DNA from: Candidatus Sumerlaeia bacterium
GTDB lineage: Bacteria; Sumerlaeota; Sumerlaeia; SLMS01
Direction: 5' to 3'
NCBI GenBank assembly: GCA_038208905.1
Contig: JBBQYG010000001.1
Span: 7,789 to 71,788 of the forward strand
Length of the DNA: 64,000 nucleotides
Of this stretch, positions 9,749 through 61,500 are shown piece after piece. The stretch's first letter is position 1; the number at the start of each line of letters is the position of its first letter. Below the pieces are notes generated by a model, which did no database searches, was not told the origin of the DNA, and saw only the letters and a program-made list of their open reading frames with translations. The translations under genes and the position numbers were made by a program.

Positions 9749-10549
9749 CTAGAGCGACCTCCGGCCAAAGATCGCCGCACCCGCCGCCAGCGCCAGCCCC
9801 GTATAGACAACCGCATAGGCCGCGAGTCCCACGAACATCGCGCCATCCAGGGGGCCGATTCCGTCGGTGTATCGCGTCACGGTATCCAGGATCGAAAAGT
9901 TGGGAATGTATGCCGTGATCCACTGGGCGGCCGATGGACCGACGATTGGCGCAGCGCGCGCGCGCGCGAATCCGACCGCGGCATCGCCCACCACAACGAG
10001 CAGGCCCAGCACCACCACGTTGACCGCCTGGGGCGCGACGAGTGAAAACGCCAGCGCCAGCGCCGCCAGCATCGACACCGATAGCACGGCAAGAATCATC
10101 GTTTGGGCCAGCATCATGGCATCGTATTCCTCCATCCGCGGCGCGCCGATCCACGCCAGCGCCATTAACACCGCCAGCGAGGTCGCGCCGATTCCCGCCG
10201 CGGCGAGCCACTTGCCAACCAGATACTCCCCGCGCCCCAGCGGCTTGCCAAGCAGGGGATACAGCGTGCGGTTTTCCATCTCCGTGGGAACTTGGCGCGC
10301 CGCCGTCAGCAGCGTCAGCACCATCGCCGAATAGTAGGCCATCGTCATCCCCAGGTTGAGGAGGAACGTCCCCACGGCCTTGTTCTCGATCCCCACCACC
10401 ATCGTGACGATCATCCCCAGCACATAGACGCCCATGAGGATGAACAGGACATAGAACTCCTGGCGACGGATGGTTTCCAGAAGCACGCCGCGCGCAACCA
10501 GCGAGATAGAGCGCACGGGATTGATGGGGAGGGCGGCCACTGCCTGCAT
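9749..10549 (-). CDS. ABC-2 family transporter permease
   Basis: Six TM segments. Conserved ENRTLYPLLGKPLGRGEYLVGKWL block shared with the upstream paralogue. The start is taken at MQAVAAL by alignment to that paralogue. Start and stop overlap by 1 nt (TGATG). Confidence 0.75.
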   Translation of the reverse strand: MQAVAALPINPVRSISLVARGVLLETIRRQEFYVLFILMGVYVLGMIVTMVVGIENKAVGTFLLNLGMTMAYYSAMVLTLLTAARQVPTEMENRTLYPLLGKPLGRGEYLVGKWLAAAGIGATSLAVLMALAWIGAPRMEEYDAMMLAQTMILAVLSVSMLAALALAFSLVAPQAVNVVVLGLLVVVGDAAVGFARARAAPIVGPSAAQWITAYIPNFSILDTVTRYTDGIGPLDGAMFVGLAAYAVVYTGLALAAGAAIFGRRSL

Positions 10550-11340
10550 CAGAGCGGCCTCCGGCGGAACCAGACCAACGCGAGCGAGAAATAGAGCGCG
10601 GACCAGACAAAGCCATAGGCAAGCACCGCGAGCATCGACCAGGCGGAGAGTGGAGGCCACATCTCCCCCGCGTGGACTGTCTTCTCCGACAGGTCGAAGA
10701 GCGCCAGTTGTGGGATCGCGTAGTTCATCGCCGTCATGCCCATCCTTCCGAACTCATCCGCGAAATCGTACAAGTTGCTGATCACCGAGGAGATCACGGA
10801 ACTGGTGAAGTAGAAGATCGCCCCGATCGTGATCGCAGCGTCCAGGTTCATCAGCATCGACAGCCAGAAGCACAGCGTGGCGACGACGAGCATCCCGGCA
10901 AGCTGAAGCGTAACGTACTGCAAGAAGAGCACCCACGGCACTGGCTGGCCAAGGTACAGCGCCCCCGCCAGATACACCGACATGAACAATCCCAGGCAAA
11001 ACGCGCCCGCCATCATCACGCCCAGCAGTTTGCCCGCGAGGAAAGCCATGCGGCCAACCGGCTTCGCGAGCAGCGGATAGATCGTCCTGTTCTGGAACTC
11101 CCGCGGAAGCTGGCGCGAGGCCAGCACGATCACCGTGAGCGCGGTCGCGATTCCCATCACGCGCAGGGCCACCTCGCGATAGAACTTGTGCAGGTCCTTC
11201 AGATTGAAGAAGTCGATCGACATCACCGCGCCGATCAGCAGCACCGTGACGAGCACGATGGCGTAGATCTCCCGTCGGCGCACTGCCTCGATCAGCACGC
11301 TCCGGGCGATGAGCCAGGGTGACCGCAGAAAACCGGCCAT
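10549..11340 (-). CDS. ABC-2 family transporter permease (paralogue)
   Basis: 263 aa with six TM segments. Contains the QNRTIYPLLAKPVGRMAFLAGKLL block. Overlaps both flanking genes by 1 nt. Confidence 0.75.
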   Translation of the reverse strand: MAGFLRSPWLIARSVLIEAVRRREIYAIVLVTVLLIGAVMSIDFFNLKDLHKFYREVALRVMGIATALTVIVLASRQLPREFQNRTIYPLLAKPVGRMAFLAGKLLGVMMAGAFCLGLFMSVYLAGALYLGQPVPWVLFLQYVTLQLAGMLVVATLCFWLSMLMNLDAAITIGAIFYFTSSVISSVISNLYDFADEFGRMGMTAMNYAIPQLALFDLSEKTVHAGEMWPPLSAWSMLAVLAYGFVWSALYFSLALVWFRRRPL

Positions 11341-11735
11341 CAGCTCCCCGATCCGTGATGTTGCACGTCAGTGACTTCGTGCAGGTAGTCGTGGAGCCTG
11401 CTCATCAACGCGCGGTACTGCGCCGGGGTCAGATCAACCTCGGTGCCGCCCACCCCCAGGTCGATCATCGCATCCTTGGGGACAGACTTTAGGAATCCCT
11501 CGCGAAACACGACGCGGACGCGGTCGCCCTGCATGGTGATGACGACGTCGCTCTCCTCCGTGGGGCCAAACTTGATCGAGTGATCCTCCGCAAGTTCCAG
11601 CAGGATGCCATCTTTCAATGGATCGAAGGGTGCCGGGGTAGCGGCGGGGGTGGCTGGTGCAGGGGGTTTTTCCTCCCGCGATCCGCAGCCCGCAATGGCG
11701 AGAGCGGCGATAAAGAAAACAGTGCGTGGCGACAT
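11340..11735 (-). CDS. lipoprotein of unknown function, first gene of the ABC-2 permease operon
   Basis: 131 aa. Signal peptide with lipobox (FFIAALAIAGCGS). Pro/Ala/Thr linker. His-containing C-terminal tail (VQHHGSGS). Confidence 0.55.
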   Translation of the reverse strand: MSPRTVFFIAALAIAGCGSREEKPPAPATPAATPAPFDPLKDGILLELAEDHSIKFGPTEESDVVITMQGDRVRVVFREGFLKSVPKDAMIDLGVGGTEVDLTPAQYRALMSRLHDYLHEVTDVQHHGSGS

Positions 11736-11833
11736 GAACGGTTACTTCCCAAGGCGTGGAGTCACCGGGATCCCGGCGCGCCTGTGAGGTGGATTGATTG
11801 GCGGATGCCCGCCACCGGCGCAACCCCAAGCAT

Positions 11834-11880
11834 CGAATTGTAGTATTTGGTCACAAATGTATCATTGGTTACAAATTGGC
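11834..11880. promoter_or_regulatory. AT-rich direct-repeat element in the divergent promoter region; candidate metal-repressor operator
   Basis: The only AT-rich stretch in a roughly 220-bp GC-rich intergenic region. It reads gaattgtagtatttggtcacaaatgtatcattggttacaaattgg, i.e. two 12-mers TTGGTCACAAAT / TTGGTTACAAAT 6 nt apart, about 80 nt upstream of the binding-protein gene ATG. Confidence 0.3.
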
Positions 11881-11958
11881 TTGCCATCCCCCCGCCAATG
11901 GCCCCACACACATCGCGTCGCCGGTGGAACGGTGGCAGACTCCACCGAGGCCCGGTCC

Positions 11959-12903
11959 ATGCACTTTCCTCCCGCCCTTCGCGCACTGATCTGCTTCCTC
12001 GCCCTCGCGGCGTTGCTGGGGGCCGCACCGCTCCGCGCGGAGTATGCGGGTGCCTATCCCTTCAAGGCCGTGGCGACCACCGGAATGGTCGGCGACATGG
12101 TCCGCCGGATCGCGGGCGAGCGCGCCACCGTGACCGACCTGATGTCGGCGGGGATCGACCCCCACCTCTACAAGCCCGGCCGCGGCGACCTGATCGCGCT
12201 GAAGGGCGCGGACATCGTCTTCTACAGCGGACTGAAGCTGGAGGGCCAGATGTCGGAAATTCTCGCCGGCCTCTCCACCAGCAAGCCCAGCATCGCCATC
12301 GCCGAGGCGATCCCATCCGCCAGGCTCCTGGGTGACGACCATCATCACGACCCCCATGTTTGGATGGACGCGGCCCTGTGGCTCCTGGCGGCGGAGAAGG
12401 CCCATGCGGGGCTCGTCACCTTCGACCCGAAGGGGAAGACGATCTACGAGGCGAATATGGAAATCCTGAAGAAGGATATGGCGGCCCTCGATACGCGTGC
12501 CCGCGAAGCCATTGCTTCGATCCCCAAGGAGGCCCGCGTGCTCGTCACGGCACACGACGCCTTCAGCTATTTCGGACGCGCCTATGACATCGAAGTGATG
12601 GGCATCCAGGGCATCTCCACCGAGTCCGAGGCGGGCCTGCAAGACATCAACCGCATGGTGGAACTGCTCGTGTCGCGCAAGATTCCCGCGGTCTTTGTGG
12701 AGAGCAGCGTCAGCGAAAAGAACGTCCGCGCCCTCGTCGAAGGCGCCGCCGCCCGCGGCCACAAAGTCGCCATCGGCGGCTCGCTCTTCTCCGACGCCAT
12801 GGGCAAGGCCGGCACGCCGCAGGGCACGTACATCGGCATGATTGATCACAACGTGGAGACGATTGTGAAAGCGTTGAAGGGGAAGGAAGGGAATGGGGAA
12901 TAG
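11959..12903 (+). CDS. Metal (Zn/Mn) ABC transporter substrate-binding protein, cluster A-I (ZnuA/TroA/MntC family)
   Basis: ATG at 11959 follows an in-frame upstream extension. Signal peptide (ALICFLALAALLGAAPLRA). The DPHLYKP and DPHVWMD motifs are typical of the family. His-rich loop GDDHHHDPH as in ZnuA. Confidence 0.85.
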   Translation: MHFPPALRALICFLALAALLGAAPLRAEYAGAYPFKAVATTGMVGDMVRRIAGERATVTDLMSAGIDPHLYKPGRGDLIALKGADIVFYSGLKLEGQMSEILAGLSTSKPSIAIAEAIPSARLLGDDHHHDPHVWMDAALWLLAAEKAHAGLVTFDPKGKTIYEANMEILKKDMAALDTRAREAIASIPKEARVLVTAHDAFSYFGRAYDIEVMGIQGISTESEAGLQDINRMVELLVSRKIPAVFVESSVSEKNVRALVEGAAARGHKVAIGGSLFSDAMGKAGTPQGTYIGMIDHNVETIVKALKGKEGNGE

Positions 12904-13015
12904 GGAGTGGGGAATGGAGTTCCAACCCGCTCCCCTTCGCACTCCCTGTTAGGGATTCCTCGACATTCTCGCCACATCAGTTCCCTATTCCCCATTCCCC
13001 GTTCCCCATTCCCCC
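12887..13015. repeat. Inverted array of heptamer repeats (GGGGAAT)n ... (ATTCCCC)n spanning the stop of the binding-protein gene and the intergenic region
   Basis: Left arm aagggaatggggaatagggagtggggaatgg (about 12887-12916). Right arm tccctattccccattccccgttccccattcccc (about 12982-13015). They are reverse complements built from GGGGAAT units, about 65 nt apart. Confidence 0.6.
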
Positions 13016-13021
13016 TCTCCC

Positions 13022-13834
13022 ATGCCCCTCCCCGGAATCCGCCCCAGCATCCCCGCCACACCCCGCGACGACCACGCGGAGGATGCGCCGTTGTCTATAC
13101 ACGACCTGACAGTGGCGTATCGGCGGAAGCCGGTGCTGTGGGACGTGGACCTGGACCTGCCGGAGAAGCGCCTGATCGCGCTGGTGGGGCCGAATGGCGC
13201 GGGGAAGAGCACGCTGCTGAAGGCCGCGCTGGGGCTGGTGCCCGCCGTGTCGGGCGATGTGAAGGTCTATGGGCGCGACTACAAGGAGCAGCGCAGGCTG
13301 GTGGCCTATGTGCCGCAGCGGGAGTCTGTGGATTGGGACTTCCCCGTGAACGCACTGGATGTTGTGGCGATGGGCCGCTATCGGCGCATCGGATGGCTGA
13401 GGCCCGTGGGTCGCGCGGACCGCGAGGCGGCGATGGTGGCGCTGGGCAAGGTGGGGATGGCGGACTATGCGCAGCGCCAGATCAGCCAGCTTTCCGGGGG
13501 CCAGCAGCAGCGGGTGTTCCTCGCCCGCGCCCTGGCTCAGGAGGCGCGCCTGTACCTGATGGACGAGCCCTTCGCGGGCGTGGATGCCGCGACGGAGAAG
13601 GCTATCGTGGCGCTGCTCGACGACCTGCGCGAGCAGGGAAACACGGTGCTTGTTGTACATCATGATATACAGACCGTGCCCGCGTATTTCGACTATGTGG
13701 TGATGCTGAACATGCGCGTGGTGGCCCATGGTCCCGTTGAGGACGTGTTCACGGAGGAGAATCTGCGCAAGACATACGGCGGCAAGCTGACGCTGCTGAG
13801 CGCCGCCGCCGAGGCGCTGGCGGGCAGGCGATGA
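13022..13834 (+). CDS. Metal ABC transporter ATP-binding protein (ZnuC/TroB family)
   Basis: Walker A GPNGAGKST. ABC signature LSGGQQQRV. Walker B LYLMDEP. H-loop. 4-nt overlap with the downstream permease gene. Confidence 0.9.
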   Translation: MPLPGIRPSIPATPRDDHAEDAPLSIHDLTVAYRRKPVLWDVDLDLPEKRLIALVGPNGAGKSTLLKAALGLVPAVSGDVKVYGRDYKEQRRLVAYVPQRESVDWDFPVNALDVVAMGRYRRIGWLRPVGRADREAAMVALGKVGMADYAQRQISQLSGGQQQRVFLARALAQEARLYLMDEPFAGVDAATEKAIVALLDDLREQGNTVLVVHHDIQTVPAYFDYVVMLNMRVVAHGPVEDVFTEENLRKTYGGKLTLLSAAAEALAGRR

Positions 13835-15201
13835 TTTCGAGCCTGGCCGCCGCCAGCCACGCGGAAATCGTTCCTCCGATGGAGGCGCTGTGGCGGGTGC
13901 TGTCGCTGCAGGACTACAATACGCGGGTCGTCGTGATTGGCACAACGCTGCTGGGCCTCGCATCGGGGCTGGCGGGGGTGTTCCTGCTGCTGAGGAAGCG
14001 CTCGCTCCTAAGCGACGTGGTCAGTCACTCCGCCCTTCCCGGAATTGGCATCGCGTTCATCGCGATGACGATGATGGGCGGCGGCGGCAAGAACACCCTT
14101 GGCCTGCTGCTTGGCGCCACGGCGACCGCGCTGCTGGGCATTGTCGCGGTCGGCGCCATCCGTCGGTTCACGCGCCTGAAGGACGATGCGGCGCTGGCGA
14201 TCGTGCTGGGGACGTTCTTCTCCGCGGGGATCGCGCTGACCGGCGTGGCGGCGCGCATGCCTGGCGCGGGAGCGTCGGGGCTGGAGAGCTGGATCTACGG
14301 CAAGACCGCGTCGATGCTCTTCTCCGACGCGCTGCTGATCGGAATCACCGGCCTGCTGGTGACGCTGGGGACGGTGCTGCTCTTCAAGGAGCTGGCGCTG
14401 CTATGCTTCGACGAGGACTTCGCCGCGACGCAGGGTTGGCCCGTGGGGCTGCTGGACATGTTGCTGATGGGCGCGACGGTGGCCGTCACGGTGATCGGCT
14501 TGCAGGCGGTGGGGCTGATCCTGGTGGTGGCGCTCCTGATCATACCGCCGGCGGCGGCGCGGCTGTGGACGCATCGGCTGCGCCCGCTTGCCGCGATCTC
14601 GGCGGTGATCGGCGGGCTCGCCTGCCTGGTGGGGAGCGCCCTCAGCGCGCTGATGGAGAATCTCCCCGCGGGCGCGATCATCGTGCTCTCCGCGGCGGCG
14701 CTGTTCTGCGTCAGCCTCGTCTTCGGCACAGAGGGCGGGATGCTCCACCGAGGCCTCGGCGCGTGGACGCTGCGCAAGCGCGTCGGTCGCCAGCATCTGC
14801 TCCGCGCGCTGGCGGAGCTTGCAGAGCAATCCGGCAAGGACGTCGCCTCCTTCTCCACGATCCGTCACCGGCGATCGTGGCACACCGCGACGGTGCGGGG
14901 ACTCCTCGCAAGCGCCATGAAGGATGGGCTGGTGGAGCGCGTGGATGCGCGCCATTGGCGCCTGACGGAATCCGGAGTGGCGGAAGCCCGCCGCGTTGTC
15001 CGCAATCACCGCCTCTGGGAATTGTTCCTGATCACCCACGCCGACATCGCGCCCTCCCACGTGGATCGCGACGCCGACATGATCGAGCACATCCTGGACG
15101 AGCGAATGATCGCGCAGCTTGAGGGATTGATGGCCGGGGAGAATCGCGGCCACGTGCCGCCGAGCCCGCACGCATTGCGTCCGGCGGAGGGCACGGCCTG
15201 A
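13831..15201 (+). CDS. Metal ABC transporter permease (ABC-3/ZnuB-TroC family) fused to a C-terminal DtxR-family metal-dependent repressor domain (YtgC-YtgR-like)
   Basis: 456 aa. The N-terminal roughly 300 aa are a typical ABC-3 permease with 8-9 TM segments. The C-terminal roughly 140 aa read LLRALAELAEQSGKDVASFSTIRHRRSWHTATVRGLLASAMKDGLVERVDARHWRLTESGVAEARRVVRNHRLWELFLITHADIAPSHVDRDADMIEHIL. This matches a DtxR/MntR winged-HTH plus the RRHRLxExFL dimerisation region. Confidence 0.85.
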   Translation: MISSLAAASHAEIVPPMEALWRVLSLQDYNTRVVVIGTTLLGLASGLAGVFLLLRKRSLLSDVVSHSALPGIGIAFIAMTMMGGGGKNTLGLLLGATATALLGIVAVGAIRRFTRLKDDAALAIVLGTFFSAGIALTGVAARMPGAGASGLESWIYGKTASMLFSDALLIGITGLLVTLGTVLLFKELALLCFDEDFAATQGWPVGLLDMLLMGATVAVTVIGLQAVGLILVVALLIIPPAAARLWTHRLRPLAAISAVIGGLACLVGSALSALMENLPAGAIIVLSAAALFCVSLVFGTEGGMLHRGLGAWTLRKRVGRQHLLRALAELAEQSGKDVASFSTIRHRRSWHTATVRGLLASAMKDGLVERVDARHWRLTESGVAEARRVVRNHRLWELFLITHADIAPSHVDRDADMIEHILDERMIAQLEGLMAGENRGHVPPSPHALRPAEGTA

Positions 15202-16505
15202 TGTGGACGACCTTCGACACCGCGATCGTGGCCACGGGCGCCATCGCGGCGATGTCCTGCGCGCTGCCGGGATGCTTCCTTCTGCTGAGGCGCAGCAGCA
15301 TGATGGGCGACGCGATCAGCCACACGGTGCTGCCGGGAATTGCGGCGGCATACCTGCTGACGGGATCGCGGGACAGCCTGCCGATGTTCGTCGGCGCCAT
15401 CGTGGTGGGCGTCCTGACGGCGTTGCTGATTCAGGCGGTGCAGCGCGGCGGCCAGGTGGAGGAAGGCGCCGCGATGGGCGTGGTGTTCACGTCGCTCTTT
15501 GCCCTCGGCCTCGTGATGATCCGTCGCGCGGCGGACCATGTGGACCTCGACCCGAGCTGCGTCCTCTATGGCGCGCTGGAACTGGCGCCGCTGGATACCG
15601 TCTCCGTCGGCGGCTGGGACATTCCCCGCGCAGCAATTTCGAGCGGCGCGCTCCTGCTGATCAACGCGGTCTTCATCGGCATCTTCTACAAGGAGCTGAA
15701 GCTCTGTGCGTTCGACCCGGGCTATGCGCGGACACAGGGCATTCGCGTCGGCGCGCTGAATCTGGCGCTGATGACGCTGATCGCCGCGACCACCGTGGCC
15801 GCGTTCGAGAGCGTCGGCAGCATCCTGGTGATCGCGATGCTCATCGTGCCCGCCGCCACCGCCTACCTGATGACGGATCGGCTGCCGATCATGCTGGTGG
15901 GGAGTCTCGTCTTCGGCGCGCTCTCCGCCGCGCTCGGCCACGGCATGGTGGTGTGGATGGTCGATGGATTGGGACTGCCCGACACCAGCTCCGCGGGGAT
16001 GACCGGCGTGGCGGCGGGGATCCTCTTCGTCGCGATGGCGCTGGGTTCCCCGAAGTATGGTATCCTGATGCGCGCGGCCCGTTCGCTCCAGCTCGCCCTC
16101 GGCATCGCGCGCGACGATGTGCTCGCCTACCTGTACCGCCACGGCGAACTTGATCCACTGGGCACCCGCCCGCGCCCCACGGCAAGCAACCTCCGCGAGG
16201 CCATCCGTGCCCGCGTCGCGGTCAGCGCGGCGATCTGGCAACTGAGGAATCGGCGCCTGCTGGCGGCGGAGGGCGGCGGAATCGCCCTCACCCCCGCTGG
16301 CCGCGACACGGCCCGGGGCCTTGTCCGGTCGCATCGGCTGTGGGAGACGTATCTGGTGGAGAAATTGGGGCTCCGACCCGATCACGTGCATTCCACGGCG
16401 GAAGTTCTGGAGCACATCACCGACCGCACCATGCGCGAAAGCCTGAGCCGCGAGACCGGCGACGCCCCCCGGGACCCCCACCGCTCCAGCATCCCCCCAG
16501 AGTGA
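15201..16505 (+). CDS. Second metal ABC transporter permease fused to a C-terminal DtxR-family domain
   Basis: 434 aa. Permease core followed by ...SNLREAIRARVAVSAAIWQLRNRRLLAAEGGGIALTPAGRDTARGLVRSHRLWETYLVEKLGLRPDHVHSTAEVLEHITD, which is DtxR-like. ATG overlaps the upstream TGA (TGATG). Confidence 0.85.
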   Translation: MWTTFDTAIVATGAIAAMSCALPGCFLLLRRSSMMGDAISHTVLPGIAAAYLLTGSRDSLPMFVGAIVVGVLTALLIQAVQRGGQVEEGAAMGVVFTSLFALGLVMIRRAADHVDLDPSCVLYGALELAPLDTVSVGGWDIPRAAISSGALLLINAVFIGIFYKELKLCAFDPGYARTQGIRVGALNLALMTLIAATTVAAFESVGSILVIAMLIVPAATAYLMTDRLPIMLVGSLVFGALSAALGHGMVVWMVDGLGLPDTSSAGMTGVAAGILFVAMALGSPKYGILMRAARSLQLALGIARDDVLAYLYRHGELDPLGTRPRPTASNLREAIRARVAVSAAIWQLRNRRLLAAEGGGIALTPAGRDTARGLVRSHRLWETYLVEKLGLRPDHVHSTAEVLEHITDRTMRESLSRETGDAPRDPHRSSIPPE

Positions 16506-16587
16506 CCCCCCGCAATCGTTGCTGACACGCGGGCGGGCGTCGGCCTACACTTTCCACCAGATTACCCGCGAAGGAGCCGCGCAGCCC

Positions 16588-16809
16588 ATGTTACTCTTAT
16601 CGGCAGGCCTATTCCCCGGGTTCTGGGAAATGATGATAGTCCTCGCGGTGGTCCTGCTTATCTTCGGGCCGCGCAACCTCCCCAAGCTGGGCGCCATGAT
16701 CGGCAAGACCATTGGCTCCTTCCGCGACGCCGCTACCAAGGGCGTGGACGAGGACGAGGAAACCCCGAAAGCGCCCGCATCAATCGACAGTCGCAAGGAA
16801 CCGAGGTAA
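16588..16809 (+). CDS. tatA: Twin-arginine translocase subunit TatA/E
   Basis: 73 aa from the ATG at 16588, with AAGGAG 12 nt upstream. Sequence MLLLSAGLFPGFWEMMIVLAVVLLIFGPRNLPKLGAMIGKTIGSFRDA carries the canonical TatA TM, hinge and amphipathic-helix signature. Confidence 0.85.
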   Translation: MLLLSAGLFPGFWEMMIVLAVVLLIFGPRNLPKLGAMIGKTIGSFRDAATKGVDEDEETPKAPASIDSRKEPR

Positions 16810-32697: not shown

Positions 32698-35600
32698 TTA
32701 GTCCTTCACGACGTTACCGGTGAGGAAGATGAGGAGCGTAATCTTGTCCTCGGTGTTCTGGGTCCGGTTGAATAGGTACTTGCCGATGAAGGGAATGTCG
32801 CGGAGAATCGGGACGCCGGACTCGAGGTCCTGCGTGCGCTCCGACCGCCATCCACCGAGGACCACCGTGCCGCCGTCCTTGATGCGGGCCCTGGTGGTCA
32901 GTTCCTTGCGGATGCGGCCCACGTCGGCGAAGCGGCTGGCCTGGGGAAGCGTGGTGGCGGGAGCGAGTGCCGACACCGCAGAGGGATCAAGGGTGACGAT
33001 CTGACCGATGTTCTGATCGATGTCCTCCATATTCACGTCGATATCCAGCGTGATGTTGCCCGCGCGGGTGACGTTGGGGGTGATCGAGAGATCGACAGGC
33101 GTCAGGCCCGTGACCAAGCTGAGCTGCTGGTTGCCGCCGCCGGTCGCGCCGCCACCAGTTGCTCCCTCGATGGGGCGGGGCGAGCCGAACGAGCGCTCGA
33201 CGATGAAGTCGGCGGTTTCGGTATTCAGCACCGTGACGCGGGGTCCGTTGACGACGTTGATGATTCCCTGGGCCTCGAGCACGCGAAGCGTGAACGAGAT
33301 GGGGGAGCTGCCGTTGCTGACCAGGTAGTTGAAGACGGTCGAGCCCTTGAGGAGGTTTGCGGCCTCGTTCCCCTCGACGGGGGCCTCGAAGGGGCTGCGG
33401 AACTCGTCGCGGTCCTGAGCGAATCGCGAACCGAGAAGAGAATCCGAGAGATCGAAGCCATCGGTCAGGTTGCCGATCGTGAACTCCGGCTTGATTTCCT
33501 TGGCCTTGTTGCTGGCCACCTCGACGAACTTGATCTCGATATCGACCTGAAGCGTCGGGATGTCCAGCGTGCGGACCCAGAACTCCACGCGGCGGAGCTC
33601 TTCGATGCTGTCGTACTCGACGAAGATGGCGTTCAGGTTCTCGATCTCGACGATGGTGAGGCCGGTTTCGGCGCGAACCTGATCGCGCTGGGCCTCGACG
33701 TCGGCCTGAGCCTGATCCTGCACTTGGGTGTCGCCGCCGCCGGTGTTTCCGCCGGGGACGAAGCGGATGGTCAAACGGACTCGGCCTTCGCCGGGCGTGT
33801 TGGAGGGCTTGATGTCATCGGCGACGATCTCGAAGTCCTCGACGAATTGCGAGCGGAACTCCTCGATGGTGACATCCTGGCTGGTGGTGCCGGTGCGGAC
33901 GACCATCTCCACGCTGTCGTCGTTATCGTCCACGGTGTCATTCTCGTTCACGCGCGTAACCCGGAAGTTGCCGCCGTTGAAGTCGAAGTCGTCCTGGACG
34001 CCAAGCGTCTGATTGACCTCGGTGCCGCTGGACGCGCTGGAATCCGCGCTGGCGCTGATTCCGAGGAAGGACTCGATCTGGCCGGCCAGATCGGCGGCAT
34101 TGGCGTGATCGAGGAAGATGATCTTGCTGCGCCGACGCGCATCGATCTGGGGAAGGTTCTCGATGAAGTTCTGCACCGTGGCGATGCGGTCGGCCGTGTC
34201 GGTGATGGTGAGCTGGAGGGAGGCCGGGTCGTACCAGAGGCGACGGCCCTCGGCCTCCGCCTTGCTGTAGCCGTCCTGCGAGTAGAGGAGCGTCTCGACG
34301 ACCGAGCGCACCTGATCCGCGAAGGCGCGGGCAAGGTCGGGGTTGTCGGCGAACTGGGTGATCGGCGTCAGGTTGAAGGTGGCGATGGTGAGCTCATTGC
34401 TGTAGAACTTGGCGAGGAAGTTCTGGTCCTGCAGGATATTGCGGACCTTCTGAACGTTGTCGGCGGTGTCCTTGATGATAAGGGTGCTGCCCTCGATGAT
34501 GAGCTTGCGCTCGGGGTTGAAGGGCTGGAGGTCGTCGGCGACGAGGAGGGCGGAGAGGAGCGCCTTGATCTCGGGGGCCTTGGACTCGTCGATCTCGTAG
34601 CTATCGAAGATGAGCTGCGTGCGCTGCTGGCCGCGCAGGCTCTCCTGAATCTTGCGGATCTTGGAGATGTTGGCCTCGGAATCCGTGACGATCAGCAGGT
34701 TGCGGGCGGTATCGAGGAGGATCTCCTGGCCGAGGAGGCTGGGAACGCCCTTCTCACCGTAAAGCAGGCGCGGAAGCGTGCCGCCCTCGATGAGGGACTC
34801 GATGGTGGATATCTGGTCGGGAGCGAGGCGGAAGACCTCGGTGCGCAGGTCGGGTTCGATGATAACGATGCTCTTGCCCGGTTCGCGGCGCCAGCGGAGG
34901 CCGATGGGAAGCAGCGCGGAATCGAGCACCTCGTGCAGGGCCACGTCTTCCCAGGCGCCCTCGATCTTGGCATTCACTTCGCCGACGATGGAAAAGTCGA
35001 TGCCCGAGAGCACGCGCAGGTTCTGGAGGAAATCCGCGAGGGACATGGCGCCGATGGTCCGCAGGGGAATCGGCGTGTTCATCTTCTCGACGGCGTCGGC
35101 CTCACTCTGCTCAAGGTTCCGCTTTGCGGCCTCGTTGGCCTGGAGGGCGTTGTACTCGGCTTCCGTGCCGGCGAGGTAGGAATCGGGCTTGAGGAACGAA
35201 GGATCGAGGTCCTTGGCATCCAGCCAGCGCTGACGGGCGCGGGCGAGTTCACCCTTCTTGTAGAGGGAAACGCCCTCGTCATAGGCCATCTCGGCCTGAC
35301 GGGTGCGCTCCTTGGAGAGGCGTTCGACATCGGCCTTGGCCGCGGCTTCCTGTGCCTTGACGGCGGCATCGGCCTTGGCAACCGCGGCTGCGGGAGTGGG
35401 GGCGGTCGCTTCGACAGGGGGAACCGGGGTGGGGGCCGGTGTGAACTGGGCGGCGGGGGCGTTGGCAAAGGGGCTGTCGGGGACGCCGGGCGCGGGGGCA
35501 GGCGTGGGCGCCGGAGCGGAAGCGAAGGGGCTGTCGGGAACGGTCGCGGCGGCAGCCGACACGGGGCGTTCGATGACGACAGGAGGCGCGGGAGTGGGAG

Positions 35601-36960
35601 CAGGCGTCGGGGCGGGCGTGGGCTTGGGAGCCTCGGCCACCACGGCGGTCTTCTTGACGGCCTCGGCGGCCGCCTTCTTGTCGTCTTCTGCCTTCTTGGC
35701 GGCAGCGGCGAGGGCCTTCTTCTCTTCTCCGGCCTTCTTGACTGCGGCCGCGTCGGCGATCTTCTTGTCCTCCGCAGCCTTCTTCGCGGCAGCGGCTTCG
35801 CCGACCTTCTTATCGTCCTCGTCCTTCTTTGCGAGAGCGGCTGCCTTCTTGTCGTCTTCCGCCTTCTTCGCCGCAGCGGCCTTCTTATCGGCGTCCACGG
35901 ACTTCATGGCGGAGGAGCTTGCTGCTCCCAGCGACTTGTTGGCCGACTCGAGGCCCTTCTTGGCCTTGGAGTTTGTGGGCGCGGAGGCGAGCACGGCCGC
36001 GTAGGCCTTGGCGGCGCCATCGTAGTTCTTCGCCTTAAGCAGGCGATCGGCGGCGGCGAGGTCCTCCCCGAGCTTCCGCTCCTGAGAGGCGGCGACGAAC
36101 TTCTTCTCCTCGGAGCCAATCTTGGCGAGGAGGGAAGTGGCGGGCTTGTTCTGCTTATCGAGCGCGAAAACGCGGCCGACGGTCTGGCGGGACTTGTCGA
36201 ACTGGTTGGCCTTGAGTTCCGCGCTGGCGGTCTTCAGGAGGCCATCGATCGCGGTCTTGTTCTTGGCGGCGTTGAAGGCGGATTCCTCTTTGGCAATCCG
36301 GGCGGAGAGCTTATCGAGGTCATTCTTGAAGAGCCCCTTGGCGGTCTCGCGCGCGGCGGCCTCGTTCCGGCGGGCCTCGTCGAAACGCTTCTCCTTGGAG
36401 GCGCGTTCGGCGGCCTTGATCCGGTCGCCCACAGCCTTCTCGAGGGATTCTTCGAGGCCCTTGGTGCGCTCCTTCTCGATGCGCTCGCGAAGGCTCTTGG
36501 CGCGTGAGTTGGCCGGGTCGAGTTCCAGTGCCTTGGTGACCTCGACGGCGGCTTCGTCATAGCGGCCTGCATTGCGGCGGTCGTCCGCGGAACGCAGGAT
36601 GCTGGACACTCGCTCTGCGCGGGCGCTGGCGACGGCGGCTTGCTCGGCCGCGGCGATATCCTTGGCGAGCTGGTCGAGACCGGGCGCCTTGGGATCGGCG
36701 GCGCGCGCCCTCTCGAGGAACTCGCGGGCGGCGGAAAACTGCTCCTTCTTCAACTCGGCGCGAGCCGACTTGAGGAGCTGTTCCGCCTGAGCGGTGCCAT
36801 TGGTTTTCTTGGCATCGGTCTGGCTGGACTTGGATGCGGTGTCGTTGGGGGCCGATTGGATCGCCACCGGTGCCAGCATGAGGCTGGCAGCCAGAGTGGC
36901 TTGGATAGCCACGCCTCCGGTTAGCTTTCGTAGGCAACGCCTGCTGCTCTGCCGATTCAT
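32698..36960 (-). CDS. pilQ: Giant type IV pilus/T2SS-type secretin (PilQ-like) with a long N-terminal TPR/coiled-coil and Ala-Lys-rich repeat region
   Basis: 1420 aa. Signal peptide. The first ~420 aa are TPR-like/coiled-coil. A low-complexity (KKAAEDKK)n region is followed by a PTPAPTPAP linker. The C-terminal secretin domain ends ...GGWRSERTQDLESGVPILRDIPFIGKYLFNRTQNTEDKITLLIFLTGNVV. It is downstream of the pilM-N gene. Confidence 0.8.
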   Translation of the reverse strand: MNRQSSRRCLRKLTGGVAIQATLAASLMLAPVAIQSAPNDTASKSSQTDAKKTNGTAQAEQLLKSARAELKKEQFSAAREFLERARAADPKAPGLDQLAKDIAAAEQAAVASARAERVSSILRSADDRRNAGRYDEAAVEVTKALELDPANSRAKSLRERIEKERTKGLEESLEKAVGDRIKAAERASKEKRFDEARRNEAAARETAKGLFKNDLDKLSARIAKEESAFNAAKNKTAIDGLLKTASAELKANQFDKSRQTVGRVFALDKQNKPATSLLAKIGSEEKKFVAASQERKLGEDLAAADRLLKAKNYDGAAKAYAAVLASAPTNSKAKKGLESANKSLGAASSSAMKSVDADKKAAAAKKAEDDKKAAALAKKDEDDKKVGEAAAAKKAAEDKKIADAAAVKKAGEEKKALAAAAKKAEDDKKAAAEAVKKTAVVAEAPKPTPAPTPAPTPAPPVVIERPVSAAAATVPDSPFASAPAPTPAPAPGVPDSPFANAPAAQFTPAPTPVPPVEATAPTPAAAVAKADAAVKAQEAAAKADVERLSKERTRQAEMAYDEGVSLYKKGELARARQRWLDAKDLDPSFLKPDSYLAGTEAEYNALQANEAAKRNLEQSEADAVEKMNTPIPLRTIGAMSLADFLQNLRVLSGIDFSIVGEVNAKIEGAWEDVALHEVLDSALLPIGLRWRREPGKSIVIIEPDLRTEVFRLAPDQISTIESLIEGGTLPRLLYGEKGVPSLLGQEILLDTARNLLIVTDSEANISKIRKIQESLRGQQRTQLIFDSYEIDESKAPEIKALLSALLVADDLQPFNPERKLIIEGSTLIIKDTADNVQKVRNILQDQNFLAKFYSNELTIATFNLTPITQFADNPDLARAFADQVRSVVETLLYSQDGYSKAEAEGRRLWYDPASLQLTITDTADRIATVQNFIENLPQIDARRRSKIIFLDHANAADLAGQIESFLGISASADSSASSGTEVNQTLGVQDDFDFNGGNFRVTRVNENDTVDDNDDSVEMVVRTGTTSQDVTIEEFRSQFVEDFEIVADDIKPSNTPGEGRVRLTIRFVPGGNTGGGDTQVQDQAQADVEAQRDQVRAETGLTIVEIENLNAIFVEYDSIEELRRVEFWVRTLDIPTLQVDIEIKFVEVASNKAKEIKPEFTIGNLTDGFDLSDSLLGSRFAQDRDEFRSPFEAPVEGNEAANLLKGSTVFNYLVSNGSSPISFTLRVLEAQGIINVVNGPRVTVLNTETADFIVERSFGSPRPIEGATGGGATGGGNQQLSLVTGLTPVDLSITPNVTRAGNITLDIDVNMEDIDQNIGQIVTLDPSAVSALAPATTLPQASRFADVGRIRKELTTRARIKDGGTVVLGGWRSERTQDLESGVPILRDIPFIGKYLFNRTQNTEDKITLLIFLTGNVVKD

Positions 36961-57236: not shown

Positions 57237-58475
57237 ATGAGCCAGATCCTGAACGGTGCCGAATCCCTTCATGACGAGGTCCATAGTGGGAGGTCGCCCC
57301 TGCTGGCGAAATGCGACCGCTTCACCAAGGCGGAGGAGCTGCGCGAGGTAGGCCTCTACCCGTATTTCCGCAAGATCGAGTCGGCCCAGGATACGGAGGT
57401 CGAGATCGATGGGCGGCGGATGCTCATGCTCGGCTCCAACAGCTACATGGGGCTGACCAACGACCCGCGCATCAAGGAGGCCGCCACCAAGGCCATTGCC
57501 AAGTACGGCACCGGCTGCGCGGGCTCCCGGTTCCTGAACGGCACGCTGGACATCCATGTGGAACTGGAGGAGCGCATCGCCGAAGTCCTCGGCAAGGAGG
57601 CGGCCCTGGTCTTTACCACCGGATACCAGACCAACCTGGGCGCGATCTCCGCGCTGGTGGGTCGCGAGGACGCGGTATTCGTGGACCGCACGGACCACGC
57701 CTCGATCATGGACGGCGCGAGGCTATCCTATGGCAAGACGTTCAAGTTTGCCCACAACAACGTGGACGATCTGGATCGGATGCTGACCAATAGCACGGCC
57801 CGCGGCAAAATGATCGTGGTGGATGGCGTCTATTCGATGGAGGGCGACATCGCCAAGCTCCCCCAGATCGTCGATGTCGCCCGCAGGCACCGGGCCGCGA
57901 TTCTGGTGGACGACGCCCACGCCCTGGGGGTGATCGGGCGGGACGGCTCGGGAACGGCAAGCCACTTTGGCGCGACAGACGATGTGGAAATCATTGCGGG
58001 AACGTTTTCCAAGTCGCTGGCGTCGATCGGCGGCTATGTGGCGGCGGACCGCGCCATTATCGACTACCTGAAACACCACGCCCGGGCGCTTATCTTTAGC
58101 GCCTCGATGGCGCCCTCCTGCGTGGCCGCCGCCCGGGCAGCTCTGGAAATCATGATCGCCGAACCGGAGCGCCGGGAGAACCTGTGGCGCAACACGCGCT
58201 TCATGATGGAAGGCCTGAAGTCCATCGGCCTGGACACCGGCGATTCCGAAACGCCGATCATGCCGGTGGTCATCGGCGAGATCGAGCGCTGCTTCCAGGT
58301 ATGGCGGATGCTGCACGACGCGGGGATCTTCGTGAATCCCGTGGTCGCCCCGGCGACTCCGCTGGACCGCTCTCTGATCCGCATCAGCGTGATGGCGACC
58401 CACACAACGGACCAGCTCTCCCACGCCCTCGATTGCATCGAGAAATGCGTCCGCACGATGGGGCTGACGGGCTAA
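57237..58475 (+). CDS. PLP-dependent alpha-oxoamine synthase (BioF/Kbl/serine palmitoyltransferase family)
   Basis: 412 aa. Class-II aminotransferase fold with the PLP lysine in GTFSKSLASIGG. Conserved HASIMDG and VVDGVYSMEGD. Confidence 0.85.
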   Translation: MSQILNGAESLHDEVHSGRSPLLAKCDRFTKAEELREVGLYPYFRKIESAQDTEVEIDGRRMLMLGSNSYMGLTNDPRIKEAATKAIAKYGTGCAGSRFLNGTLDIHVELEERIAEVLGKEAALVFTTGYQTNLGAISALVGREDAVFVDRTDHASIMDGARLSYGKTFKFAHNNVDDLDRMLTNSTARGKMIVVDGVYSMEGDIAKLPQIVDVARRHRAAILVDDAHALGVIGRDGSGTASHFGATDDVEIIAGTFSKSLASIGGYVAADRAIIDYLKHHARALIFSASMAPSCVAAARAALEIMIAEPERRENLWRNTRFMMEGLKSIGLDTGDSETPIMPVVIGEIERCFQVWRMLHDAGIFVNPVVAPATPLDRSLIRISVMATHTTDQLSHALDCIEKCVRTMGLTG

Positions 58476-58549
58476 GCCTTGCGTCCAGCCGGTCCACCGC
58501 GAGGATTCTCCCCTCAGAGGGTCGGGGATCGGGGGATGACAACTTGGCG

Positions 58550-61500
58550 ATGAGTTTCAACAACTGCTTCTATCGCGTCGTTGCGAGCCTGTTGCTCGTC
58601 GGGGCGTTGCACGGCGCCGCCCCGGCGGCGCGCGTGATTTTTGACGGCGTTCCGCCCGAGGGAATTCTGACGCGGGCAGACCGCCTGATGGTGACGACGA
58701 CGGGGACGCTTGTCTCGCGGAAGGTTCCCCCCGTGAAGTCGCAGAGCGACACCTACCTTTTTGCGGTGCCCGAGGGGCCGTTGGAGCTGGTGGTCAACCG
58801 CCTCCAGTTCCGCAACACCCGCACGGGCGAGTTGCGCGATTCCCTGCCCGGCGAGCCGCGCCACAAGGCCGTGTTCGACGCGGGCAAGCGCCAGTTCAAG
58901 CTCGATCCCTTCGGCCAATTCCGCGGCGTGCGCGCGGCGCGGCTGCAGATCAGCACGGCCCGGCCCTTCACCGATTCGGGCGAACAGCTGGAGATCGCCG
59001 GTTACGAGGCGGAGGTCCGCTGGCCCGAGCCCGGTGCGCCGCCCGCGTCCACCGACTCCGCGGTGGCGGGCGGGCTCTATCGCGAGATGCTCGACGCGAC
59101 GCTGGCATATCCCCCCGCCCTCGAAGCGTTTGCCGCGCCCGATTCGGCAAGCCCCCACCCAGGGCCGACGGCGTGGCAGCCCGCGGCGGAGGGTTCACCC
59201 GGGATGCCGTGGCTTCGGTTCGCGGTGAAGGATGACGACCTCTATCGCATCGATGCGGATTGGCTCCGCAAGGCCGGCGTCGCACTCGGAGAACTGACAC
59301 CCGGCGACATCCAGATCGTCCGGGAGGGTGTCGCCGTGCCGGGCCTCGCGCTGCCGGATGCAAAGCGCCCCTTTGCCGACGGCGGCAGGCTCGTGTTTCA
59401 CGCGAGCGGCAGCGATTCCAGCGAGACCGCCGAGGCCACCTATTTCCTGGGCCGCCGACCGCAGCCCGCTCCGATGGCGGCGATGGAGACCGCCCCGCCG
59501 TCCAATGGCGATATCCGCGAAGCGGTTGTCTATACGCGGCGGCACGTGGCCGAGCAGGACAACCAGTTCGAGACGCGCATGGGCGCGTTCCTTTCCATCC
59601 GGGAGATGGACTGGCTGTGGGGTCCGCTGGGCGTGGCCAAACCGCTCGTAACGCCCTTCGCGCTTCCCGGCCTCTCCGACGGCGGAACGACCGCGACGGT
59701 GCGCCTCTACTACGGAGAGGGACCTTTCCCCGCCGGCGCGCGCCTGACCGCAAAGATTGGCGGATCCCAGATTCTGGACGCGGAAATAAAAGCGGCCACG
59801 CGCGACTACGAATTCGCGATCCCGGCCGGTGCCGTTTCGCGAGAAGGGAACCAGCTTGAGTTCCAGCTGTCCGCCAAGGCCGAGCCCGAGTCCAAGGTGC
59901 TCCTCGACCAGATCGCGTTCGACTATCGCTCGTTTCCGTCCGCTGATGCGGGGCGACTTGACTTCGCGTTCTCGCCACTCGCCACAGAGGTGGGTGGCAC
60001 GACGGGCCTGCGCGCCGTTGGCTTCTCCGATTTCGTGCTGGCTGTTGACGTGACTGATCCCGCCAAGCCGATGCTGTATTCTCCGGAAAAGAGCGAGGGC
60101 GCCGTCCGTATCGTCGGCGCGATGGGGCCGACGACCCGCATCCTCCTCCGCGATCGCGACGCGGTGATGCTCGCCCCCGATGGACGCCCCGCGGCGGCGA
60201 CGGACCTCGCGTCGCGCTCACAGTCGGCGGATGCGCTGATCGTCTATCACAACCTCTTCGGGAAGGAAGCCACCCGCCTCGCCGAGTCGCTGCGCGAGGA
60301 AGGCATCGGAGTGAAGCTCATCGACGTGGAGACGATCTACAACGCCTACTCGTACGGCGATACTTCCTCCACGGCGATCCGCAATTTCCTGGCGGTGGCG
60401 GTCAACGAGTGGGCTGGTCGCCGCCCCGCCGCCGCGATCCTGATCGGCGACAGCACCAGCGACGGCCGCGGAGAGGCGCGCAACGGCCTACCCAATCATA
60501 TGCCGATCCCGTTGATGGTTTCCACCCAGGGTCAGGCGAAGGAGTTCTGCTCCGACAGCGTCTATACATGGCTTCGCGGAGAAGACCAGGCCGCCGACAT
60601 CATCCTGGCGCGCATTTCCCCCTCCGTTCCCGAGGAAGCCGCCGCGATTGTTGCCAACATCGTGCGCTATCGCGCGGCACAGGACACGCCGCAGGACTGG
60701 GCCGGCCGTGTGGTGACGCTGGTGGACAGCGGGGAATTCCGCGTTCCAGTGGAGCAGGCCTTCCGGCCCGGCCTGTTTGGCGGATACGAGAACCGCTTCG
60801 TCCACGCGGAGGACTTCGCGTGGGAGGACAACTACTACCTGCCGGAGCATCTGATACGTCGCGTGGAGGACTCCAAGGTGAGCCCTCTGCTGACGGCGGA
60901 GATCGAGAACGCCTTCAACGAGGGCGCCGCCGTGGTTTCGTTCTTCGGCCACGGCGCGCCCAACCTGTGGAGCAATCAGCGCTTTTGGTTCGGCGGCGGC
61001 ACGCCCAACAGCGACATCCCGCGGCTGCGCAACGGCGAGCGGATGCCGCTGGTGACATCGTTCACCTGCAACAACGCCGTGGTGGACTATCCGCTGGAGC
61101 CATGGAACATCTGCATCGCCGAGGACTTCATGCGGCACGAGGGGAAGGGCGCCATCGGCTGCTTCATGCCGTCTGGGCCGGGCTTCCTCGCCAGCCATCG
61201 CGTGATGGCGGAGGGATTCTCCAACGCGATGTCGCGCGCGCGGGTTCGCTCTCAGGGCGTCCTCGCGGAGCTGACGCGCACCTACTATCAAGCCAAGCAG
61301 AATCCCGACGATCACTCGCGCATGTTCCTCTTCCTCGGCGATCCCTTTCTGCGCCTTCCCCCGCCGACGGGCCCGGGCGGGGACTATCGCCGCGAGCGCG
61401 ACGCGACGCTTTCCGCCGAGGGCGGCGCCGTCGTGATCCGCGAGCTCAACGCGCAGGGAACGCCGGAGGAGAAGAAGCTCGCGGGGTTGCGACGCTGGGC

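Follow-up and report, generated by a model that had tools for sequence, protein, structure and literature searches.

A Tro/Ytg-type metal importer of a Sumerlaeota bacterium with DtxR-family modules on both permeases

The importer operon and its fused permeases

The stretch of DNA analysed here, called the window, comprises 64,000 nucleotides from a Candidatus Sumerlaeia bacterium (assembly GCA_038208905.1, contig JBBQYG010000001.1, positions 7,789 to 71,788 of the forward strand), and it encodes a divalent-metal importer of the Tro/Ytg type (cluster A-I, ABC-3) in which both membrane permeases, named PermA and PermB, end in a module of the DtxR/MntR repressor family. The four genes lie on the plus strand in the order periplasmic metal-binding protein (SBP; 11959..12903), ATPase (13022..13834), PermA (13831-15201, an open reading frame (ORF) of 456 aa) and PermB (15201-16505, an ORF of 434 aa). 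The ATPase and PermA genes meet in an ATGA at 13831, and the stop codon of PermA overlaps the start codon of PermB in a TGATG at 15199-15203. An initial annotation, made from the sequence alone, had placed the two permease ORFs at the same coordinates, had noted this overlap and had proposed that both tails match DtxR-type proteins, pointing to the motifs RNHRLWELFL...MIEHIL in PermA and RSHRLWETYLVEK...VLEHITD in PermB; the ORFs, the overlap and the motifs are all present.

The SBP is a TroA-like protein of cluster A-I, matching the Pfam family ZnuA (E 8e-75) and Treponema pallidum TroA (PDB entry 1toa; E 8e-73), and its alignment with 1toa shows the TroA-type His-His-His-Asp site with all four ligand motifs kept (DPHLY, DPHVW, TAHDAF and FSDAMG). 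The listed ORF of this gene begins at a TTG at 11794 (11794-12903); the ATG at 11959 was preferred as the start, since it gives a normal signal peptide (MHFPPALRALICFLALAALLGAAPLRA) and since a candidate operator, described below, falls within the longer ORF. The ATPase is TroB/YtgB-like by Pfam and NCBIfam (Pfam ABC_tran, E 1e-28; NCBIfam Mn/Fe ATPase, 6.5e-72; MntA, 1.9e-70). These alignments begin at residues 21-24, and the annotated start codon (ATG, 13022) would add a Pro-rich leader of 20 residues outside the family profiles; read together with a GGAGGA at 13079-13084, the starts of the profile alignments suggest that translation probably begins at the TTG at 13091. The imported metal could be manganese, zinc or iron.

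The same gene order (SBP, ATPase, permease, permease) is found in YtgABCD of Chlamydia trachomatis, a likeness judged from the architecture, and in the tro operon of Treponema, to whose TroA the window SBP is a close homolog. The operon of T. pallidum is troABCDR, and its TroR is a two-domain protein of 153 aa without an SH3 domain (PMC2628430). Relatives of the window operon were searched in one genome per species, of which at least 583 were confirmed, and the 80 best loci together with that of Desulfonema ishimotonii formed a comparison set of 81 loci, with PermB visible in 79. The order SBP-ATPase-PermA-PermB is kept in 74 of the related loci, or 75 with the window.

Both permeases carry an N-terminal transmembrane domain of the ABC-3 family PF00950 (cut-off 20.1 bits). 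That of PermA (13831..14724, aa 1-298; E 3.6e-53, 181 bits) is TroC/YtgC-like and that of PermB (15201..16055, aa 1-285; E 6.3e-46, 157 bits) is TroD/YtgD-like, the two being about 30% identical. A Foldseek search with the PermA domain, the only one of the two so compared, placed PsaC of the Streptococcus pneumoniae manganese importer PsaBC (7KYP) first, with a template-modelling (TM) score of 0.87 normalised to the target, a root-mean-square deviation (rmsd) of about 3 Å and 29% identity; PsaC is homodimeric and, unlike PermA, has no C-terminal regulatory module.

The tails that follow these domains are the central feature of the locus: each is a complete two-domain DtxR/MntR module, composed of a winged helix-turn-helix (wHTH) with its wing and a dimerisation and metal-binding domain, without the SH3 domain. 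The PermA module occupies 14740..15171 (aa 304-447; 16.4 kDa) and the PermB module 16059..16496 (aa 287-432; 16.2 kDa). Both are strongly basic, with isoelectric points (pI) of 10.6 and 10.9, respectively, rising to 11.3 and 12.0 in the wHTH parts. Of the two halves of the profile comparison that the initial annotation had suggested, the one for the C-terminal domain held and the other did not: Fe_dep_repr_C (PF02742; cut-off 27 bits) matches PermA with 52.2 bits and PermB with 68.3 bits, and the N-terminal wHTH model PF01325 has no match in either protein at E <= 0.1. The NCBIfam models of DtxR/MntR also align over the C-terminal regions. In phmmer searches against the PDB, residues 324-435 of PermA align with residues 14-123 of IdeR/DtxR, and residues 303-432 of PermB align with residues 11-136 of DR2539 and 8-133 of DtxR; the PermB module also matches Mycobacterium tuberculosis MntR (5zr4) with E 7e-15.

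The structural models agree with these alignments. The full-length AlphaFold2 model of PermA has a mean predicted local distance difference test (pLDDT) score of 86.5, with 90-97 over residues 300-400, and in it the last transmembrane helix (280-298) is joined by a loop of five residues to a long helix (304-334), which is followed by helices 341-347 and 352-364, a wing (368-378) and helices 380-403, 408-415 and 424-433. The model of the PermB C-terminal domain (pLDDT 95.4) shows, in domain numbering, helices 2-32, 43-50 and 53-65, a beta-hairpin at 69-78 and helices 80-102, 112-119 and 124-133. By the models and the PDB alignments, a wHTH fold of three helices and a beta-wing therefore precedes helix 4 in both modules. 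Foldseek retrieved SloR, IdeR and DtxR for the PermA tail (rmsd 2.3-2.9 Å), and for the PermB domain DR2539 first (TM score 0.78/0.83, rmsd 1.8 Å), then MntR, IdeR, DtxR and SloR; the alignments to the DtxR family span 114-137 columns and include DNA-bound structures. The tails thus score against the DtxR family and fold as wHTH modules, and they are not additional transmembrane or periplasmic segments. The PermB module ends in DPH..IPP, a motif found ahead of the SH3 linker in relatives with three domains. In structure and in sequence it is matched best by two Mn-dependent repressors, DR2539 of Deinococcus radiodurans and MntR of M. tuberculosis (30-34% identity). These differ from it in being soluble, free-standing proteins with canonical recognition helices and, in their full-length forms, a third domain, as seen from entries 5zr4/5zr6 (214-226 residues) and, for DR2539, from a published abstract that gives it three domains.

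The metal ligands of DtxR (M10, H79, E83, H98, C102, E105 and H106) have equivalents throughout both modules: H322, H393, E397, D412, D416, E419 and H420 in PermA, with two His/Cys-to-Asp changes, and D306, H378, E382, H397, E401, E404 and H405 in PermB. Both sets are full but they are unlike, H / H-E-D-D-E-H in PermA and D / H-E-H-E-E-H in PermB. The six PermA ligands from H393 to H420 are invariant in 49 homologs, and H322, the consensus at its position, is shared by about 80% of 82 sequences. In PermB, D306, H378, E382, H397, E404 and H405 are invariant columns and E401 alternates with His among 45-49 diverse homologs. The PermA metal-site stretch LITHADIAPSHVDRDAD-IEH is nearly invariant over the 82 sequences. 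The segment of PermA at aa 401-420 (window 15031-15090), ITHADIAPSHVDRDAD-IEH, is also nearly invariant among phyla, and it holds more His and Asp residues (H403, D405, H410, D412, D414 and D416) than the canonical DtxR site. This surplus may point to a further metal site, to a binuclear one, or to a surface for protein contacts that has been conserved.

The counterpart of the PermA fusion is ytgC-ytgR of Chlamydia, where the first ABC-3 permease likewise has, in one ORF, a DtxR-like module at its C-terminus in which the metal ligands are conserved, and the precedent named by the initial annotation is therefore the right one for this permease. The second permease departs from it, because YtgD is unfused and PermB is fused as well. 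The PermB fusion looks like an in-frame fusion of troD and troR, since troR follows troD in treponemes. As compared to the tro operon, the window accordingly has a TroR-like module in frame with its TroD-like permease and a second module on its TroC-like permease.

Distribution of the fusions

Permeases that join ABC-3 to PF02742 are not confined to this bacterium, and thousands of homologs with this architecture were found for each of the two permeases. In the comparison set PermA is fused in all 81 loci, a count that is partly given by construction because one of the two patterns used in the search was a motif of the PermA module. Among the 79 loci with a visible PermB, 33 have the double fusion and 46 carry a single module. 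The double fusion occurs in at least six phyla, its groups being Sumerlaeota, Kiritimatiellae, Lentisphaerae, Planctomycetota (Gimesia, Isosphaeraceae, Pirellulaceae and Phycisphaerae), Desulfobacterota and a few Verrucomicrobiota, most of the last having single fusions. The presentation of the double fusion as special to this DNA has to be given up. Fusions of a permease to a repressor have also been counted in 11 phyla by Thompson et al. 2012, so far as that survey is cited in PMC5599777. In our literature search no paper was found on the double fusion, nor one in which any fusion of this kind had been characterised outside Chlamydia, in keeping with what had been supposed at the outset, and the double fusion is apparently an undescribed, though widespread, variant of the YtgC-YtgR/Tro theme.

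The fusion had been taken to support an affinity with the Planctomycetes-Verrucomicrobia-Chlamydiae (PVC) superphylum, and the data speak otherwise. The operon is found in Desulfobacterota too; the closest PermA relative among the matches listed is from a Sumerlaeota metagenome-assembled genome (MAG; 63% identity); every named match of PolA above about 48% identity is from Candidatus Sumerlaeota/Sumerlaeia; and the NCBI taxonomy places Sumerlaeota among the candidate phyla, outside the PVC group.

Conservation of this architecture, in thousands of homologs as well as in at least six phyla, suggests that it is under selection. It could be asked whether the modules are nevertheless decayed relics of fused repressor genes that have no present function, for which the variation of the recognition helix (see below) and the silence of PF01325 could be cited. 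The ligands are invariant, however, the fold is modelled with pLDDT of 90-97, full length is kept among phyla and thousands of sequences, and no truncations occur in the sampled fused forms, so that we consider decay very improbable.

A candidate operator upstream of the SBP gene

A palindrome resembling an MntR box, ATGTATCATTGGTTACA, lies at 11857..11873 (extended form AAATGTATCATTGGTTACAAAT, 11855-11876), 86 nt 5' of the SBP start codon and within an island of 35% GC. It is the sole match in the 64-kb window to ATGTANC-N4-GNTACA, for which 0.13 matches are expected by chance, and the same 16-mer frame is found upstream of the SBP gene in both of the other Sumerlaeota loci (L002 and L004). 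A weaker, half-similar site (TGTAGTATTTGGTCACA, 11839..11855) adjoins it with a spacer of 3 nt. The main and the weaker site together produce the direct repeat TTGGT(C/T)ACAAAT at 11847-11858 and 11865-11876, which is the repeat that the initial annotation had noticed at 11834-11880.

Two classes of palindrome, M1 and M2, are enriched upstream of the SBP genes of related loci, and neither was found in coding controls. M1 is AAATGTAGCC-NN-GGCTACATTT, which Gimesia and a Phycisphaerae MAG have in the same form, and it shares with the enterobacterial MntR box, AACATAGC-N4-GCTATGTT (PMC1698941), the 8-4-8 layout and the TAGC-N4-GCTA core of the E. coli-type MntR-mntH system. The window palindrome is a degenerate copy of M1, agreeing at 12 of 16 core positions and 15 of 20 extended ones, and the weaker site matches M1 poorly. 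M2 is (C/T)TTTGA-N4-TCAAA(G/A) and equals the experimentally defined TroR operators, ATTTTGATATATCAAAAT in T. denticola and CTTTGATGCATCAAAAT in T. pallidum (oligonucleotides, PMC2628430). This TroR box, TTTGA-N4-TCAAA, precedes many of the related fused-permease operons. It is not present upstream of the window SBP, where its best match covers 10 of 16 positions, and the window differs from the Treponema operon in having an MntR-type box.

The 22-mer of M1 had 35 exact matches in metagenomes. Thirteen lie directly upstream of fused-permease operons, and PermB is fused in all seven of these in which it is visible; at least 10 of the 35 adjoin genes for the NRAMP transporter mntH and/or small free-standing MntRs of the E. 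coli type, and the 22-mer can separate mntH from a free mntR gene. It also adjoins, in its exact form, genes unrelated to metal transport at several metagenomic M1 loci, L087 and L109 among them, for example one for a DUF1559-like protein typical of Planctomycetes with a prepilin-type N-terminus (GFTLIELLVVIAIIG); such neighbours could be further members of the regulon or neighbours by chance.

Free-standing three-domain repressors similar to TroR/SloR, with a VTPGT-T recognition helix, adjoin the operon in 24 of the 81 loci. They are adjacent in 19 of the 37 loci with a TroR box as against none of the 11 genome loci of the M1 type (Fisher p = 0.0017). The combination of a TroR box and an adjacent free repressor was seen, among others, at L003, L005, L023, L030, L031, L038, L042, L044, L048, L052, L060-L062, L066, L068, L074, L078 and L081. 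In the Desulfobacterales (L009, L011, L012, L015, L040 and L076) a free repressor gene stands upstream on the same strand, and in all of these except L040 PermB is fused too, which gives three DtxR-type modules per operon. The intergenic palindromes of this group are again different ones, for example AATTTGGCCACCCAAATT and AATTTTGGGTTGCCAAATT in L009 and TAGGTTGACCTA in L011. The window itself contains no free-standing DtxR/MntR gene within its 64 kb.

From the MntR-type box we consider the window operon to be probably manganese-regulated through a protein of the DtxR family. In this it would differ from the chlamydial system, where an iron response is described; the window box suggests manganese rather than iron, and the host is a free-living member of Sumerlaeota. 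A plus-strand pair TTGGTC-17-TACAAA can be read by eye, although it is below the threshold of the sigma-70 scan, which returned no plus-strand promoter; the sole hexamer pair it reported is on the minus strand (11865-11837) and overlaps the operator. The palindrome stands in a divergent intergenic region (11735-11959), and the opposite unit, on the minus strand at 9749-11735, encodes a small lipoprotein and two ABC-2 permeases, genes that offer no clue related to metals. Because the minus-strand hexamer pair overlaps it, the candidate operator could control both directions.

The spacer between the SBP and ATPase genes carries a heptad inverted repeat made of (GGGGAAT)n and (ATTCCCC)n on the plus strand (12885..13031), which is imperfect, with an 18-nt perfect core and 33-nt arms, and includes both the stop codon of the SBP gene and the annotated ATG of the ATPase. 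Folded as RNA it reaches -71.4 kcal/mol (z = -4.6), and none of 200 shuffled sequences folds as well. The suggestion that 12887-13015 might serve as an operator was not borne out, as this long G-rich/C-rich hairpin is of an RNA type and not an obvious protein operator. It may act as an element of mRNA stability or of translation masking that sets the ratio of SBP to transporter. Downstream of PermB, 13 nt past its stop codon and on the same strand, lies a gene of the tatA/E family (16519-16809; PF02416, E 7e-14), which may be co-transcribed with the importer. More distant in the window are genes for a 1420-aa secretin with an N-terminal TPR region (32701-36960) and for a 1540-aa C25-peptidase/CARDB protein (58184-62803).

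Possible roles of the fused modules

The only member of this family that has been studied by experiment suggests what the modules could do. In Chlamydia, YtgR is released from YtgC by cleavage, and its repression of the ytg promoter depends on metal (PMC5599777, PMC6504234, PMC7755916), by which the operon is auto-regulated (PMC5599777, PMC6504234). By analogy, the modules of the window would act as sensors of metal in the cytoplasm and as a feedback on the importer: under metal-replete conditions they would bind metal as co-repressor and repress their own operon as the chlamydial YtgC-YtgR does, the predicted target being the palindrome of MntR type at 11857-11873, with which the likely promoter overlaps. 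In favour of this are the intact and very basic wHTH, the conserved ligands, the palindrome that is unique in the window and kept in the Sumerlaeota relatives, and the lack of a free-standing DtxR/MntR gene both in the 64 kb and beside any of the 11 genome loci of the M1 type. We give this reading about an even chance. Within it, the module might be cut from the permease before it binds DNA, which we put forward tentatively and at clearly less than even likelihood, and binding by a module that is still tethered seems quite unlikely. In the structures of DtxR and IdeR with DNA, the N-terminus of the protein lies against the DNA. Release is preferred to tethered binding because the module starts about five residues past the membrane helix and the DtxR N-terminus is near DNA. 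Cleavage of this kind is known for Chlamydia and from heterologous expression in E. coli (PMC5599777, PMC7755916). The chlamydial product is of 28-30 kDa (PMC5599777, PMC7755916), as compared to the 16-kDa module here, so a released fragment need not have the size of about 15 kDa that had been expected.

Several observations weigh against such autorepression. Cleavage, DNA binding and metal specificity are predictions for the window proteins. The canonical recognition-helix motif (S/T-P-G/x-T-V/A-T or H-P-T-x-x-K) is missing from both fused modules; PermA reads RSW-HTATVRG there (family consensus RSW-SPxxLRR) and PermB is variable. The fused recognition helices are poorly conserved even among operons with an identical 22-bp box, and the free MntRs beside the M1 box, unlike the fused modules, keep GV-x-H-x-T-x-x-K. 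Co-variation of the fused recognition helix with the operator class was considered as an argument for direct reading and was dropped, as no co-variation was seen; the PermA helix follows phylogeny, and L006, with an MntR-type box, and L031, with a TroR box, have helices that are almost the same. Against the E. coli-type MntR class the fused modules reach just 17-18 bits, which is another difference from the MntR-mntH system besides the absence of a free MntR from the window; they resemble each other and the TroR class more closely (median 50-78 bits). A search upstream of the SBP genes for a third shared palindrome, one that might serve the fused modules as their own operator, found none. Since 24 of 81 loci have a canonical TroR-like neighbour and a TroR box is present, a separate regulator can account for the operators. 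To these points is added the missing match to PF01325, and the comparative evidence weakens the case that the fused modules are sequence-specific readers of the operator.

The same observations allow the modules to be pictured as metal gates in cis, which stay on the transporter as cytoplasmic sensors and, once loaded with metal, inhibit transport or alter the stability of the transporter, transcription being left to an unlinked MntR here and to TroR elsewhere. Canonical repressor genes and known operators accompany the operons in many lineages, the operator class switches without a change in the fused recognition helix, and elsewhere it is free MntR that reads the MntR-type box. The PermA half with the metal site (LITHADIAPSHVDRDAD-IEH) is nearly invariant and helix 3 is variable, and the link from module to membrane is very short and helical, with its five-residue loop. 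C-terminal regulatory domains trans-inhibit other ABC importers (MetNI and ModBC), but there they are on the ATPase, and we know of no precedent for a DtxR fold that regulates a transporter. Sensing alone would not need a wHTH and wing, and yet these are complete, confidently folded, very basic and kept in thousands of sequences; moreover, the sole member studied by experiment is a DNA-binding repressor, there is no free MntR within the 64 kb of the window, and operons with a single fusion have no partner for an intramolecular clamp. Gating of this kind is the main rival to autorepression, but we regard it as doubtful. In one variant, metal-promoted association of the A and B modules could clamp both permeases. 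The stronger proposal, that the modules are primarily gates and that the pairing of unlike modules in a double fusion clamps the permease heterodimer and stops import within seconds while MntR/TroR handle transcription, seems unlikely. If gating were true, it would add to the regulation of ABC importers a new principle, in which a transcription-factor fold carried by a membrane subunit exerts trans-inhibition, and it would prompt a re-examination of the role of uncleaved YtgC in Chlamydia.

The initial annotation had favoured a hetero- or homodimeric repressor that remains tethered, so that its dosage is tied to transporter assembly and operator DNA is drawn to the membrane. The translational coupling of the two permease genes agrees with this, as do the dimerisation domains of both modules with their differing ligand sets, and a review has considered that full-length YtgC might repress like a membrane-anchored LacI (PMC5599777). 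The geometry is less favourable. With a linker of about five residues and an extended helix 1 that comes straight from the membrane, an N-terminus held against DNA is expected to clash with the membrane, and an intra-complex heterodimer would be sterically doubtful, given that the ATPase dimer lies on the pseudo-twofold axis. A heterodimer is also unneeded in the 46 of 79 relatives that have one module. A tethered dimer is thus improbable in our judgement.

Repression of the operon by the modules themselves, on the chlamydial model, is the reading that we rank first, at about an even chance, and whichever role applies, the window can be annotated as holding a Tro-like importer, probably manganese-regulated, with two sensor-fused permeases and a candidate operator at 11857-11873. 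Fusions of permease and repressor were known from one pathogen. Our results show such a fusion to be a standard feature of the Tro-type importers of hundreds of free-living species, where it often affects both permeases, and to coexist frequently with a canonical repressor and with the well-defined operator of that repressor. Its function becomes a general and testable question, namely why an importer carries its own DtxR-type sensors when a soluble sensor is already present. Culturable Planctomycetes such as Gimesia, which combine the double fusion with a perfect 22-bp operator, offer tractable systems for this question.

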